64,000 bases of DNA from a virus (taxonomy: Duplodnaviria; Caudoviricetes), in the IMG/VR virus record IMGVR_UViG_3300006056_000001, positions 96,001 through 160,000 of that record; one strand, written 5' to 3'. This document shows positions 1,073 to 53,343 of the stretch, piece after piece. The notes beneath the pieces were generated by a model. It made no database searches, had not been told where the DNA came from, and was given only the letters and a program-made list of their open reading frames with translations. Numbering within the stretch: position 1 is the stretch's first letter; each line of letters starts with the position of its first letter. Made by a program: the position numbers and the translations under genes.

Positions 1073-1603
1073 TTAGATATAAGTTTTATTTAACCTGCCA
1101 TGTTCTTCTCTATGGCAGTTAGCACAAAGAAGAATACACTTATCTAATTCTATTTTACCTTCTATAGATAAAGGTCTTTTAGAAAATTTAGACATCTCAA
1201 AATCTTTTTCATTTTTGTTTTTATGATGAAATTCTAAAGCACCATTAAATTTATTATAACCACATATTTCACATTTACCTCCTTTATAATCTAATGCCTC
1301 TTGTTTATATTTTCTTAATCTATCAATAGCATTTCTATTGATACATTTTTTACACCAAGAACCTTGTCTTGGATGTTTTCCAGATTGAAAGTAATACTCA
1401 CCTTTAGATTTTAATATATTACAATTAGGACAAATTTTTTCTCCTATTTTATTTACTTTTTCTATATTTGATTCATTTTTCTTTATTTTATATTTAACTA
1501 AATAATATCTTATACTTGTTTGTGATTTATTTAGTTTTTTTCCTATATCTCTTTGAGATAAGTCTTGATTTATATATAAATCAATAAGTTGTTCTTTGTT
1601 CAT
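1073..1603 (-). CDS. HNH endonuclease with N-terminal HTH and zinc ribbon
   Basis: CEICGY...ALEFHH...KCILLCANCHREEH; N-terminal LSQRDIGKKLNKSQTSIRYYL. Confidence 0.9.
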   Translation of the reverse strand: MNKEQLIDLYINQDLSQRDIGKKLNKSQTSIRYYLVKYKIKKNESNIEKVNKIGEKICPNCNILKSKGEYYFQSGKHPRQGSWCKKCINRNAIDRLRKYKQEALDYKGGKCEICGYNKFNGALEFHHKNKNEKDFEMSKFSKRPLSIEGKIELDKCILLCANCHREEHGRLNKTYI

Positions 1604-20897: not shown

Positions 20898-21407
20898 ATG
20901 ATCAATTTCTTGATATTGAAGAGCTTAAAGCTCAATTAAGTTCTATAAGAGATTATGAAAAGAACTTAGAAGCTACAATAGGACAAGCAAAAATATTAGA
21001 TAAGTTTATTACTCCAAGATGTTATCATTTAGAATTTGATGAAAACTTTACTCAGTTAATGGAACTATTTAAGAATACTAAACTAATGAAAGAATTTAAT
21101 ATCAATGTAGAATATGATCAGAATCTTGATATTACTGGGGTTTATTTAGATAAAATAAAATTCATGATGGCATATAAGCATCTTAGTTTACAAAATATAT
21201 TTAAAGAGTATTTTAAATTAGCCAAAGAAAACAAGATAGAAATATTATATGGGCCTATTAAAGGATATAAGAACGAAGACGGCAGTGATTACGAAGATTT
21301 CATCATAGACCTTAAATAAGGTCTTGTATCAGGGTATAGCTCAATGGTAGAGTACGTGGTTTGGGGCCAGTTCTCTGTATCCCAAATAATGTAGTCGCAA
21401 AGACTAC

Positions 21408-21776
21408 ATGAAACAATGTAAATACTGCCATAAAAAATACCCAGAAAATCAGTTTGGAATAGCTAAAACTACTTCAACTAAGATCTATAGACGTCAAAAA
21501 TGTAATATATGCTACGCTATTACTAAACGTAAAAACAGACATAAGAAATCTCATTGGTTAGTAGAATACAAGAAAACTTTAAAATGTAGTAATTGTTCTT
21601 ATAATGATTATAGAGGCTTAGATTTTCATCACCCTAATGGCGATAAAGAAATAGATATAGGAACCTCTATATCTAGAAGATCTATAGAAAACACTAAGAA
21701 AGAAATAGATAAATGTATTGTACTTTGTGCATGTTGTCACAGAGAACTACACTATGACGAGCGTTACGGAATATAG
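21408..21776 (+). CDS. HNH endonuclease inside split tRNA-Pro
   Basis: CSNCSY.DYRGLDFHH...EIDKCIVLCACCHRELH. Confidence 0.9.
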   Translation: MKQCKYCHKKYPENQFGIAKTTSTKIYRRQKCNICYAITKRKNRHKKSHWLVEYKKTLKCSNCSYNDYRGLDFHHPNGDKEIDIGTSISRRSIENTKKEIDKCIVLCACCHRELHYDERYGI

Positions 21777-21844
21777 CACAGTTTGGCTAGTGCGTTCGCT
21801 TTGGGAGCGAAAGGTCGAAGGTTCAAATCCTTCTATTCCGACCA
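21767..21844 (+). tRNA. tRNA-Pro(UGG), intact, nested within the insertion
   Basis: CGGAATA/TATTCCG-A-CCA; TTCGC-TTTGGGA-GCGAA. Confidence 0.93.
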
Positions 21845-22183
21845 TTTCATCGTCATGATAAAGTAGAAGGTTCGAGTCCTTCTATCCTGACCAACACAAT
21901 AAAAAGAGGAACTTAAATGAACATTACTGATGTTATGAATGGTATAGTTAGTAATAAAATTGATATTGAAAAATGTCAGCAACTTATTCATCAATTTAAT
22001 AAATTAAATAAAACTAATTATTTTATTAGAGTATTAAATGTTAATAATACTGAATTAGTAGGAACATCAGATTTTAATACAAATAGAATAAATATTACAT
22101 TAGTTAATGCTATTCCTGATAAAAGTGATATTGGATATTCTAGTGGATATATTACTGCATATGATATAGGATAAATAAAATAT

Positions 22184-23437: not shown

Positions 23438-23584
23438 GGGTTCATAGCATAATGGTTAATGCTTTCTCAAACAAAAGCGGCTTAGATGACTCAGTAAGAT
23501 CACCCGGTATACAGGGCCTTGACTAAGTATTTAGGTTGGGAGTCACAACTCTCGATAGGGGTTCGATTCCCCTTGAATCCACCA
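23438..23584 (+). ncRNA. tRNA-Ala-like RNA with about 85-nt insert replacing the anticodon arm
   Basis: GGGTTCA/TGAATCC-A-CCA (G3:U70, A73); D arm GCAT AATGGTTA ATGC; T arm AGGGG TTCGATT CCCCT. Confidence 0.75.
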
Positions 23585-25584: not shown

Positions 25585-25659
25585 GTCCGTGTGGTGTAAT
25601 TGGTAGCACAGCAGATTTTGACTCTGTTAGCCCGGTTTCAAATCCAGTCAGACAACCCA
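25585..25659 (+). pseudogene. Chimeric tRNA-Gln(UUG)/His pseudogene
   Basis: Gln D and anticodon arms (GCAGA-TTTTGAC-TCTGT), but 3' end AGACAACCCA matches tRNA-His and does not pair with the 5' end. Confidence 0.7.
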
Positions 25660-26256: not shown

Positions 26257-26627
26257 ACATAAAAGTAGAAAAAACTAAACTTATTACTGCTCTTAAGCAG
26301 AATAAAGCCAAGCATATTGCTGATTATAAAGAAGCTACTATGAATTGGAAAAAAGAATTAAGGTCTATAGTAGAGTCTGCACATGATTTATTAACAAATA
26401 AACAAGACTATGATTTGTTTCTTGATAGAAAGCATGATATTTTTAGAATAGACTCTCGGCCTACTTCTCATGAAAAAGATTATGATACTGCTATTGAAAT
26501 GTTAGAGTTCTGTTCTGATCAAGAAATTGAGCTAGATATACAACAGTATAATGCTTTTGTTAAAGATCAGTGGACCTGGCGCGCTCATTGGTCCGCAAGT
26601 AATGCTAAGTATCTTAGCCACTCTTAA
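26247..26627 (+). CDS. Conserved phage protein
   Basis: L..NK.KH...Y.EA...PTSHEKDYD.AIEMLE.....IELD...Y..FV.D.W.W pattern. Confidence 0.7.
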   Translation: MELNIKVEKTKLITALKQNKAKHIADYKEATMNWKKELRSIVESAHDLLTNKQDYDLFLDRKHDIFRIDSRPTSHEKDYDTAIEMLEFCSDQEIELDIQQYNAFVKDQWTWRAHWSASNAKYLSHS

Positions 26628-26638
26628 TTAGAGTGTAT

Positions 26639-27079
26639 GGGAGTATAGCATAATTGGTTACTGCACTAGATTGTCGATCTTATTAACTATTGCAATCGTA
26701 TATGATTACATGCCTAGTAAAGATCCAGAAATAAGACGTGCTACTTGGAATAAATGGTATAAGAAAAATAAAGCTATTCATCATAAAAGGTCTAAAGATT
26801 GGACAGATCGTAGAAGAAAAGAATTAAGAATTTTAATAAATAAATATAAAAGCACACATCCTTGTAATAACTGCGGTTTTACAAATCCTGTAGCTTTAGA
26901 TTTTCATCATATAGATGTTTTACAAAAAGATATAGAAGTATCTATAGCTATAAATAGAACTTGGTCAAATAAAAGACTAGAGAAAGAAATAGCTAAATGT
27001 ATAGTTTTATGTTCAAATTGTCATAGAATAGAACATAATAAATAGACAATAATAGGTTCGAGTCCCATTACTCCCGCCA
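26639..27079 (+). tRNA. Split tRNA-Asp(GUC): 5' part 26639-26679, 3' part 27043-27079
   Basis: GGGAGTA pairs with TACTCCC-G-CCA; CTAGA-TTGTCGA-TC|TAG restores the anticodon stem. Confidence 0.82.
26710..27045 (+). CDS. HNH endonuclease inside split tRNA-Asp
   Basis: CNNCGF.NPVALDFHH...EIAKCIVLCSNCHRIEH; ATG at 26710. Confidence 0.9.
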   Translation: MPSKDPEIRRATWNKWYKKNKAIHHKRSKDWTDRRRKELRILINKYKSTHPCNNCGFTNPVALDFHHIDVLQKDIEVSIAINRTWSNKRLEKEIAKCIVLCSNCHRIEHNK

Positions 27080-27087
27080 TTAATCAC

Positions 27088-28182
27088 ATGACTCAAAATT
27101 TATTTATACCTACTAAACTTAAAGTAGGCTACCGAGAAAGAGAAGATACTTTTACAAAAAAACTAGCTTATGTTATTTATTATGATGAGAAGAATGTATT
27201 AAGAAAAGAAACTAGTTGGAAAAGTTGGAGAGATCAAAACATTCCAGATCAAGATATTGATAATGTTCCAACAGAAGGATTTGTATTAAACAAAAAGGTA
27301 GGCGGCTATAAGTCTGACTGGAACTATAGACAGTCATATATTAGAGTATATGATCCTAGAGGTTTTGAATTTGAGATTACACCAGAAAATCTATTATTTA
27401 TATTAAAAGAATCTAATTGTGATAAGGATAAAGGCTTAGAGGGCAAATTTGTTTACTCTTGGCAAGGAACAGAACTAGTACTACTTCCTGTTACTTCACT
27501 TACATATCAAACTTCTACTAAGTATACTTCTATAAGATCTAATAAAATACACAAGAAAGACTTAATTCTTGGTGCATCTTATTTAGATGATCAAGTAGAG
27601 CCTTGTATTTATTTAGGTCTTAATACAGTATATGGAAAAGACTTTTTCTATGGTGGTTCAGCAGGTAGCATGAAACAGCATGTTACTTATTATACTCAAA
27701 CTAAGAAGTATAGTTTTACTAAAGAACACAAGCATTTAAAAGAATTAGTAGACGCTAATATTTCTCCTGATTTTTCAGATTTAATAGATCATTTTGCAAA
27801 TTCTACTCGTGGTTCTCCTATAGAAAGATTAGAACTTAGGCCTATGGAGAACTATTATTATGCATCACATAAACATAATAAAGAACTAAAAAGATACTTT
27901 TGGGCAGAAGCATCTAAGTTAGAAAATACATATGATGTATATTTTAACGAATATGGGGCTACACACAGTTATCATATTAAAATTACTGATAATTCTTTAT
28001 ATACATTTAATGATACTGGGTATGCTACTACTAGACCCGCCATTCCTCCTCAAAAGAATCAACTATTTGCTATTTTGAAAAGTGGAAAGGAGATTATGAT
28101 TGATCTTAGTAATTACAGATTTTATGATATAAATAATCAGTATGATTATGAATTTATACAAGAAACAAAAGAACTAGAGTGA
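27088..28182 (+). CDS. Conserved large-phage hypothetical protein
   Basis: KLAYVIYYDEK..LRKE.SW..WRD...RVYDPRGFEFEIT.ENL motif. Confidence 0.75.
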   Translation: MTQNLFIPTKLKVGYREREDTFTKKLAYVIYYDEKNVLRKETSWKSWRDQNIPDQDIDNVPTEGFVLNKKVGGYKSDWNYRQSYIRVYDPRGFEFEITPENLLFILKESNCDKDKGLEGKFVYSWQGTELVLLPVTSLTYQTSTKYTSIRSNKIHKKDLILGASYLDDQVEPCIYLGLNTVYGKDFFYGGSAGSMKQHVTYYTQTKKYSFTKEHKHLKELVDANISPDFSDLIDHFANSTRGSPIERLELRPMENYYYASHKHNKELKRYFWAEASKLENTYDVYFNEYGATHSYHIKITDNSLYTFNDTGYATTRPAIPPQKNQLFAILKSGKEIMIDLSNYRFYDINNQYDYEFIQETKELE

Positions 28183-51417: not shown

Positions 51418-53343
51418 ATGACTGACATTTCTAAAATACTAAAAGAGTTTGAAGGTTTAGGTATAACTACAGCTTCAAACGCTACAAAATATGAGTTTTA
51501 CGATACTCCTTTTCCTACTGTTAATAATTTAATAGGTGGACTACCTAAGGGACGCTTCGTAACGATCGCAGGTTAATTTCGGGCCTGCCTATATAGTAAT
51601 ATATAGTTAAAAAATTCTTGAATTGCTGGAACATCTTACTAGGTAAAGCTAAAGACAATCAGCAGCAAAGTTTTGATAAATATACTAGGTACAAATATGC
51701 AAGTATGGCTAATTACAACTCAGCTATAAATAGGCGTTGCGTACCTGGAAAAATCTATGGATATCTAACTATAGTCAAATTTATTACCAATAAAAACATG
51801 TGGCAATGTACATGTATTTGTGGTAAAACTGTTTATAGACAAGGAGCGGCGTTACTAAAATATAAGAATCCTAATTGCGGATGCAAAAAAGGAACTTATG
51901 CTTTATTACCCAATCAGCTCGCACATAAGAATGCTATAATCAGTGACTATAAAAGACATGCCAAAGATAGAAATATTGAATTCAAATTAACAGTTGAACA
52001 AGCGGTTATATTTTTTGAAGGTAATTGTTATTACTGTGGTTCTAAACCAAGTAACCTTAAAACAGTTAAGCCTTCTAGAAAACTTAGAGCTAAATACAAC
52101 TGTACTATCACTAATTACTTCTATAATGGAATAGACAGAATTAATTCTGATCTAGGATATGAAGAAAAAAATTGTGTTAGTTGTTGTCTTACTTGTAATA
52201 GATCAAAAAGTGATCTAACTGTAGACGACTGGAAAATTTGGATCAATAATCTATATCAAAAAATGTTCAACGACCAGTCGAAAGACGTAGGATCTAGTGA
52301 TCCGAAGCGGGAATCTCCACTTTAGTGGATGAAGATATGGTCTAATCTATATAGAAATATATAGCTGGATTAACTATCCGGGCAGTAATTAACGAATACT
52401 GTTGAATATAATGCCAGAACATACTGGTAAAGGTGCCTTCTGTGCCCAAACTATAGCTCACTTACAAGCTAAGGACCCAGAGTTTATAGCCCTTTGGACA
52501 GATGCAGAGAATGCATTTGATGAAGACTGGGCTAAGAAGCTTGGTGTAGACTTAGATAGACTAATAATCCAACGTTATACTGTAGAGATAAATAGTATGG
52601 AGAAGTTATTAGATCAGTCTATGAACTTATTAAAGAGACTAAAGATTAATATGTGGGTAATAGACTCTATAGGTGCTTTGCTTCCTAGTAAGGATGCTTA
52701 CGAACAAAAGGGTAAGAACTATACAGATAAGTCTTTAGAAGGAACTAATATGTTAAACCTCCAGCGTAAGCTAGGAGAGTTCTTTCGTAAAGCTAATATA
52801 TTTGTATCACCTAGACCAGCAGAAAGCTATGGTGGCTGTTCAGTAATTTGTATTGGTCAAATTTATACAGATATTAATGCTTACATTCCCTTAGATACTG
52901 TTAAGGGAGGCAATGCACTTAAGCACTGGGCACATCTAAGATTAATGTTTAGACGTGGACCTAAGAGTGACTGGCCCGAGACTATCAAAATAAAGACTCC
53001 AGATGGTGAAACTAGGGAAGTATTCCCTGGTTGGTCTGGAAGAATGAAGATAGAAAAGACAAGAATTAATAGTAATGAAGGCAAAGAAATACTCCTTCCT
53101 TTTAAACACGGTCTTGGATTTGACTCTAGAGGCTCTGCTATTAATAGTGCTTTTGGACTGGGACTGATAGAAAGATCAGGTCCTATGTACAATAATAAAC
53201 ATTTACCTGATGGTAAGATGAAAGGTAAAGAAGAAGTAATTAAATTCTTTAATACCAATGATGAAGCATATAATGCTTTAATCAAAGATTTGACTGAGAT
53301 ATCTCTTCAAGAGATTTTAATAGAAGAAACGAAAGATGAGTGA
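51418..53343 (+). CDS. recA: RecA-family recombinase, exons 51418-51573 and 52414-53343
   Basis: Joined exons restore Walker A IAG|PEHTGKG; DAEN.FD..WA.KLGVD, IDSIGAL, GGNALKH. Confidence 0.93.
51574..52413 (+). mobile_element. Group I intron in recA
   Basis: Exon ends in T with P1 GCAGGT/GCCTGC; core P AATTGCTGGAA, Q AATCAGCAG, R GTTCAACGACCA, S AAGATATGGTCT; terminal G. Confidence 0.93.
51705..52325 (+). CDS. Intron-encoded HNH-type homing endonuclease
   Basis: WQCTCICG, CYYCG, YNGIDRINSDLGY...NCVSCCLTCN..K. Confidence 0.88.
   Translation: MANYNSAINRRCVPGKIYGYLTIVKFITNKNMWQCTCICGKTVYRQGAALLKYKNPNCGCKKGTYALLPNQLAHKNAIISDYKRHAKDRNIEFKLTVEQAVIFFEGNCYYCGSKPSNLKTVKPSRKLRAKYNCTITNYFYNGIDRINSDLGYEEKNCVSCCLTCNRSKSDLTVDDWKIWINNLYQKMFNDQSKDVGSSDPKRESPL

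Follow-up and report, generated by a model that had tools for sequence, protein, structure and literature searches.

The tRNA-Asp gene of a wastewater phage is interrupted by a gene for an HNH endonuclease, and the question raised by this locus is whether the phage still obtains a tRNA-Asp from the two pieces or has lost it to the nuclease gene. We have analyzed a stretch of 64,000 nucleotides (the window from here on) that corresponds to bases 96001-160000 of a complete, terminally repeated phage genome of 189,716 bp and 34% GC. Clustered in the window are 24 tRNA genes, and apart from the split gene the tRNAs of the phage cover 18 of the 20 amino-acid specificities. The initial annotation of the window described its only tRNA-Asp as split by the HNH gene, and proposed that compact insertions of this kind may be removed at the RNA level, for example by a nuclease plus an RtcB-type ligase. 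The parts of the locus are the following.

26639..26679, plus strand: 5' portion of tRNA-Asp(GUC), positions 1-40, from the sequence and from the ARAGORN cloverleaf after in-silico joining
26680-27042, plus strand: insert of 363 nt, a 30-nt leader and for the rest HNH ORF
26680..26709, plus strand: leader of the HNH cassette, 30 nt, from the sequence; imperfect hairpin
26710..27045, plus strand: HNH endonuclease ORF, 111 aa and TAG stop, from phrog_2255, phrog_3106 and the motif columns
27043..27054, plus strand: stretch replacing tRNA positions 41-51, apparently associated with the cassette, from comparison with intact alleles
27055..27079, plus strand: 3' portion of tRNA-Asp, positions 52-76, identical to the sister phage L060 at 23 of 25 positions

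The 5' portion comprises the acceptor stem, the D arm, the anticodon stem CTAGA, the loop TTGTCGA with the anticodon GTC, and the TC of positions 39-40. The sequence can be read directly to show that the break falls between positions 40 and 41 (TC, insert, TAG), exactly, with zero tRNA bases lost or duplicated, and that the stop codon of the HNH ORF itself serves as positions 41-43, as first described. Positions 27043-27079 read TAG, ACAATA, ATAGG/TTCGAGT/CCCAT, TACTCCC, G, CCA. The first 12 of these nucleotides are the stop codon, which pairs with the CTA of positions 27-29, a 6-nt variable loop (ACAATA) and the ATA of the T stem; the remaining T arm, the 3' strand of the acceptor, G73 and an encoded CCA make up 27055..27079, and the next gene begins 8 nt past the CCA. 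When 26639-26679 and 27043-27079 were joined in silico, ARAGORN recognized a 78-nt tRNA-Asp(gtc) with a score tolerance of 114%, which is mid-range compared with the tRNAs of this phage (98-120%); the intact alleles of its relatives reach 118-120%. The joined molecule has a perfect 5-bp anticodon stem, in which A29 pairs with the T of the HNH stop codon where the relatives have C29-G41, and its imperfections are T13·C22, A51·C63 and the 6-nt variable loop. Allowing introns in ARAGORN does not recover the split tRNA-Asp, because the break lies outside the loop, while the split tRNA-Pro of the same window is called.

No second tRNA-Asp was found across the complete 189.7-kb genome, either by ARAGORN or with the Rfam tRNA model. 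The absence of a replacement, first noticed in the window, therefore extends to the whole genome: the sole tRNA-Asp is the interrupted one, and there is no intact copy elsewhere that would make the insertion a simple disruption. A tRNA-Cys is likewise absent from the complete genome. The same sequence of the split locus recurs in four more contigs from other samples, which excludes an assembly artefact. Elsewhere in the window, 23438-23581 holds a tRNA-like RNA of 144 nt that matches the Rfam tRNA model end to end (39.7 bits), with normal acceptor, D and T arms and about 70 extra nt replacing the anticodon arm; ARAGORN without introns misses it. A weak tRNA match (33 bits) at 25585-25654 adjoins tRNA-Asn on its upstream side; its anticodon arm (TTG) resembles that of a tRNA-Gln, its acceptor and T stems are poor, and it is degraded or chimeric in appearance.

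The HNH ORF starts at the ATG at 26710 and ends with the TAG at 27043-27045. It matches phrog_2255 (E 1.5e-25) and phrog_3106 (E 2e-23), and its score against the Pfam HNH model (PF01844), 20.9 bits, is slightly below the cut-off of 21.4. The residues of the beta-beta-alpha-metal motif and both CxxC zinc pairs are all kept (CxxC...DFHH...CxxCHRxxH), and alignment A3 contains 17 invariant motif columns, with C52, C55, H66, H67, C101, C104, H105 and H109 invariant. The ORF is a bona fide member of the phage HNH families. It is 45% identical over the core to the HNH protein of the tRNA-Pro locus and 38% identical to a third copy (window 1094-1339). The stop codon of the ORF is in frame with the next gene, and we considered a reassignment of TAG and rejected it: ORFs read with the standard code already account for 84% of the genome, and treating TAG as a sense codon brings no larger gain than doing the same for TGA. 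The TAG is a real stop codon. ARAGORN calls a tRNA with the anticodon CTA outside the window, at genome 62937-63010, which ends in GGAGG...ATG; as support for reassignment this 'tRNA(CUA)' was discarded, being unseen by the Rfam tRNA model and overlapping a ribosome-binding site, and the call is probably a false positive.

The ATG of the HNH ORF has no Shine-Dalgarno sequence ahead of it. In the leader, TGCAATC (26691-26697) and GATTACA (26704-26710) form an imperfect hairpin that includes the A of the start codon. The initial annotation saw here the same plan as in the tRNA-Pro element, and the plan is indeed conserved in the Asp, Pro and L051 copies (the last from a more distant phage described below), with one covarying pair (G-C here, A-T in L051), but the Asp hairpin itself is weak (-4.9 kcal/mol, z -0.7), while the homologous start-codon hairpins are strong (z -3.4 in the Pro copy and -2.9 in L051). 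In the homing endonucleases of T4, translation is kept down by a hairpin that occludes the start site. By analogy, the leader hairpin probably limits how much of the nuclease is translated.

We have looked for the same locus in related phages. Megablast of the split locus against the phage collection and exact-pattern scans of IMG/VR with the exon sequences gave no match, and the downstream 364-aa gene used as query led to a single IMG/VR locus, distant and without tRNAs. The empty site came to light in a single metagenome scan with the 5' exon as query, on a 51-kb contig from a sister phage (L060). This phage has the same gene order, its tRNA-Asp is intact and lies at the corresponding place, 11 nt past the 126-aa gene, and the flanking genes are 83% (126-aa gene) and 92% (364-aa gene) identical at the nucleotide level. 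Its intact allele reads ...TTGTCGA TCGAG CGATT GTGGG TTCGAGT CCCAT... and was examined in eight contigs (the first plus seven from other samples with the identical intact gene) of the 13 on record. A relative with 66% identity (L068) also has an intact tRNA-Asp at this position, so that the orthologous position holds an intact gene in L059-L067 and in L068. The presence of the intact gene in the sister phage and in L068 indicates that the HNH gene is a presence/absence insertion, and these collinear genomes show the precise polymorphism expected of a free-standing homing endonuclease gene.

The two edges of the insertion are of different kinds. The left edge lies exactly after tRNA position 40 (alignment A2), and on the right firm homology to the intact alleles resumes only from position 52. 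Compared with L060, the 5' portion is identical at 37 of 41 positions and the 3' portion at 23 of 25, and the two differences in the latter compensate changes at positions 5 and 6 (pairs 5-68 and 6-67). Between them, positions 41-51 (TAG ACAATA ATA against GAG CGATT GTG in the intact allele) match at six of 11 aligned positions, in contrast to 90-92% in the rest of the tRNA. The A-C mismatch in the T stem that the first reading took as a possible sign of decay is present (A51·C63), and its source, the T-stem strand ATAGG, occurs only in the two HNH-bearing alleles, while every intact allele has GTGGG. This comparison leads us to read positions 41-51 as sequence that travels with the HNH cassette. 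A different nuclease gene occupies the tRNA-Asp spot in the P0055-bearing contigs (Logan SRR28520278 and others) of a 70%-related phage: between the 125-aa and 365-aa genes there is a minus-strand gene for a 171-aa HNH_2 protein (PF13391). This suggests that the tRNA-Asp locus is a repeated target for unrelated nucleases.

The second HNH-bearing allele belongs to a more distant syntenic phage (L051/L071), the proteins of which are 45-85% identical to those of the phage studied here. Its tRNA-Asp carries an ortholog of the HNH gene (P0002, 111 aa, 65% identical) with the same leader hairpin and the same 5' junction, after GATC. The identities between both HNH genes at the three codon positions are 74/82/65%, the second position being the most conserved, a divergence that has the pattern of coding sequence. 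At the 3' side L051 reads AAATAG|GTTCGAG, 10 nt shorter than here, and tRNA positions 41-48 are gone. The missing block (ACAATAATAG) is flanked in the window sequence by direct repeats of AATAG (alignment A1), so a slippage deletion would be the simplest account of the loss. Without positions 41-48 no simple join of the L051 allele gives a tRNA, and no intact tRNA-Asp was found within 20 kb of the L051/L071 tRNA cluster. A whole HNH ORF next to lost tRNA positions indicates that in this phage the nuclease gene has been maintained and the tRNA has not. The two HNH-bearing phages share about 91% identity in the exons and 74% in the HNH genes (nucleotides), and the L051 exons have exactly the sequence of an intact allele from a phage other than the closest relative of L051.

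Homologs of this HNH protein are widespread in phages (443 records). Among 49 IMG/VR loci with a homolog, 26 have tRNAs within 1.5 kb, and in eight a tRNA on the same strand has its start inside the HNH ORF, at its end or no more than about 40 nt beyond it. In the Bacteroides phage crAss001 (gp8) and the Pseudomonas phage KIL2 (gp49) the HNH ORF overlaps a downstream tRNA-Gly by 10-14 nt, and in crAss001 a second tRNA-Gly is located directly upstream of gp8. At the loci L013 and L017 and at the Pro locus of the window, the HNH gene and a complete tRNA form a cassette with remnants of an outer tRNA on its two sides. The Pro locus (21330-21893) has outer tRNA-Pro halves (positions 1-41 and about 42-76) around the HNH gene and a complete tRNA-Pro; the TAG stop of this HNH gene provides positions 8-10 of the inner tRNA-Pro, and ARAGORN, when introns are permitted, reports the outer gene as a tRNA with an 'intron' of 486 nt. 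The initial annotation had placed the Asp and Pro insertions at the same site, which agrees to within 1-2 nt. The Asp copy resembles the Pro, crAss001 and KIL2 copies in its homologous HNH protein (36-45% identity) with the same motifs, its orientation in the sense of the tRNA, an ORF end that runs into tRNA sequence, a hairpin over the ATG and a resident tRNA broken at about position 40-42. It differs in what it brings along. In the others a complete tRNA of matching specificity comes with the HNH gene or lies next to it, so that nothing is lost, whereas no such tRNA lies beside the Asp HNH gene, and the Asp ORF lacks the C-terminal tail of about 7 aa that overlaps the spare tRNA in the others.

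We searched for further cases by brute-force joining of all junction pairs around the 49 homologous HNH genes, and then around L051, L057 and L058, with ARAGORN as a filter. These joins are unspecific, with ARAGORN accepting too many junctions, and only the flagged loci were then read by eye. Insertions of the HNH gene without a spare tRNA are the Asp genes of the window and of L051, a tRNA-Trp (L057, with the break at 43/44) and the tRNA-Thr of P1-like plasmids of E. coli. This part of the initial proposal is supported: the insert is a compact HNH gene without a ribozyme, it is homologous to the HNH gene of the Pro locus, and HNH-only insertions recur just past the anticodon arm in Asp (L051), Trp and Thr. 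The plasmid homolog is 100% identical in the four out of four E. coli genomes that hold it and carries no evolutionary signal. In one of these plasmids (NZ_CP046005.1, 19240-19338; L074 309-407) the 5' half of the HNH-split gene is covered by a RefSeq 'tRNA-Thr' of 99 nt, and the HNH ORF there is unannotated. In an unrelated GC-rich IMG/VR phage (L032, 1340-1750), a complete tRNA-Asp directly adjoins an HNH homolog that has decayed and contains in-frame stops.

We then looked for signs that the insert is removed at the RNA level. An Rfam search of 26560-27160 found no intron family at E<=10, with no group I or group II signal, and sees only the 5' exon, as a weak partial tRNA (14.9 bits). As a positive control, the recA region of the same phage gave matches to Intron_gpI with E values of 3.2e-6 (51564-51748) and 3.6e-7 (52168-52364), sub-threshold but significant, so the Rfam search works on this genome. 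The bases of group I splice sites are not present either: the 5' exon ends in C (...GATC) and the insert in A (...AATAAA), instead of U and G. A tRNA-shaped shell around the insert was considered and dropped; Rfam finds nothing tRNA-like inside, only the 5' exon. The 444-nt precursor folds no better than shuffled sequences (z -1.07), and neither the fold nor the comparison of end pairing revealed a bulge-helix-bulge or another conserved junction structure. The complementary insert ends of the initial annotation (TTATTA/TAATAA, 6 nt) are real, but 4% of random 15-mer pairs from this insert of 26% GC pair equally well, and in the homologous element of L051 the complementarity is absent (best match 3 nt). 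Protein-spliced tRNA introns of archaea and eukaryotes depend on an EndA-family endonuclease, an RtcB-type or Trl1-type ligase and a bulge-helix-bulge at the junctions. Genes for RtcB (PF01139), an Rnl2-type RNA ligase (PF09414) or a tRNA-splicing endonuclease (PF01974) are absent from the complete phage genome, in searches where the positive controls matched. With no ribozyme signal, ligase, splicing endonuclease or conserved end pairing, with intact alleles at the empty sites and with positions 41-48 lost in L051, the proposed removal at the RNA level is not supported.

That the split gene nevertheless yields a working tRNA-Asp without a ribozyme, by protein cutting and re-joining or as paired halves, is unlikely in our estimation. 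For the first of these routes, the insert would be cut from the pre-tRNA by nucleases of the host or by unknown ones of the phage, and the ends joined by an RtcB-type ligase of the host into a functional tRNA-Asp. The exact 40/41 break and the perfect anticodon stem of the joined molecule would fit such a process, as would the lack of another tRNA-Asp in the genome, the better conservation of the exons than of the HNH gene between the two HNH-bearing phages, and the end complementarity, which could bring the junctions together. Yet the phage has no ligase or splicing endonuclease gene of its own, the end pairing is missing in L051 and the fold is at chance level with no conserved structure, positions 41-51 are unlike every intact allele and contain defects, and the L051 allele could yield no tRNA at all. 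To our knowledge, bacteria have no protein-only pathway of tRNA splicing. We consider this route improbable. A tRNA in pieces, with the transcript cut on both sides of the HNH mRNA and the unligated halves paired into a nicked tRNA, is more doubtful still and we hold it to be very unlikely. The two halves retain complementarity in all four stems, the pairs 5-68 and 6-67 differ from those of L060 by compensatory substitutions, a nick would fall within the anticodon stem and clear of the loop, and homing-endonuclease insertions that split protein genes into two functional pieces offer a parallel; however, processing signals are not visible, the paired substitutions may be older than the insertion, the anticodon stem of the L051 copy is missing its 3' strand, and we found no bacterial or phage precedent in the literature. 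Hardest to believe is a self-splicing intron of an undescribed class, very small or overlapping the ORF. HNH genes do ride group I introns in the same phage, as the matches in the recA region indicate, but only 30 nt of the insert lie outside the ORF, the covariance models give no match at E<=10, the terminal nucleotides are wrong for group I, the precursor is no more stable than shuffles and the insert has 26% GC. If a working tRNA-Asp were made all the same, the compact HNH genes past the anticodon arm (Asp, Trp, Thr) would form a new class of tRNA intervening sequences in bacteria and phages, the first in the bacterial world without a ribozyme.

The likely explanation, in our judgement, is that a free-standing HNH homing-endonuclease gene was inserted into tRNA-Asp at the DNA level and that the tRNA gene is dead at the RNA level. 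T4 SegB provides the closest model for how this could proceed. It is a free-standing enzyme encoded in the tRNA cluster that drives the inheritance of itself and of flanking markers in co-infection, and the 27 bp that it recognizes include the T-psi-C stem-loop motif conserved in tRNA genes (PMC2330249). Here too a nuclease gene lies among phage tRNA genes, the insertion adjoins the T arm, and the allele of the carrier is altered precisely in its variable loop and T stem; unlike SegB, which is a GIY-YIG enzyme encoded between tRNA genes, the present putative enzyme is of the HNH type and its gene interrupts a tRNA gene. By analogy with SegB, when a relative with an unbroken tRNA-Asp gene infects the same cell, the HNH enzyme would cut that gene close to the variable loop and the T arm. 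Repair from the HNH-bearing genome would then copy in the HNH gene with the adjoining positions 41-51, and the altered stretch (GTGGG to ATAGG and others) probably makes the carrier immune to its own enzyme. Most relatives of this HNH gene limit the damage with a spare tRNA; since none comes with the Asp copy, the tRNA-Asp gene has most likely been inactivated, and the phage would rely on the tRNA-Asp of the host. Phages can do without a full tRNA set, and here tRNA-Cys is missing too; the individual dispensability of phage tRNAs means that such an insertion can persist.

Several observations sit less easily with a dead tRNA gene. The joined tRNA is still a respectable cloverleaf with a mid-range tolerance, the break costs the gene no base and duplicates none, and the stop codon provides a T opposite A29 in place of the C29-G41 pair of the relatives. 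The loss of Asp is odd in a phage with 18 of 20 specificities covered, and the nearly identical site in four tRNAs (Asp twice, Trp and Thr) could mean a design that tolerates or exploits the tRNA context. In addition, the divergence of the HNH proteins is similar to that of the rest of the two genomes, which fits a long residence, yet the exons have remained about 91% identical. Homing with co-conversion, in which the flanks are repeatedly refreshed from functional recipient genes, could explain the exact break, the decent joined tRNA, the A29 pairing, the conservation of the exons and the agreement of the L051 exons with an intact allele from outside its closest relative.

Other known systems share single features with this locus. 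Group I introns with a homing endonuclease occur in bacterial tRNA genes, for example the tRNA-fMet intron endonuclease of Synechocystis (cited in PMC3984707), and group I introns are the only ones listed for bacterial tRNA genes in that review of 2014, at which time all known phage introns were in protein-coding genes (PMC3984707). In the Synechocystis type the homing endonuclease gene also lies in the anticodon arm region of a tRNA, but in the anticodon loop and within a self-splicing ribozyme, whereas the tRNA-Asp insert is in the stem and without a ribozyme. Free-standing endonuclease genes are reported to split protein-coding phage genes, namely those of a ribonucleotide reductase and of an RNA polymerase subunit (PMC5418858), and T4 mobE belongs with these cases (PMC2790892). 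There, as here, an endonuclease gene without intron or intein lies directly in a conserved gene; the target here is an RNA gene, for which function in two pieces is far less likely. We have found no description in the literature of an HNH gene directly inside a phage tRNA gene without an intron. The element is of a known kind, a free-standing homing endonuclease gene, and what is new is that it is lodged in a tRNA gene and without the usual spare tRNA.

These data indicate that phage tRNA genes, conserved in sequence and individually dispensable, can be used directly as landing sites by homing-endonuclease genes that have no buffering intron, and that HNH nucleases of this type probably recognise the T-arm region of the tRNA. 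For one nuclease family there is a natural series that goes from the intact gene to the gene invaded with a spare tRNA, the gene invaded without a spare and the decaying remnant. This series helps to explain why the tRNA sets of phages are patchy and rich in fragments, and it calls for caution in annotation: tRNAs that appear to be missing may be split ones.
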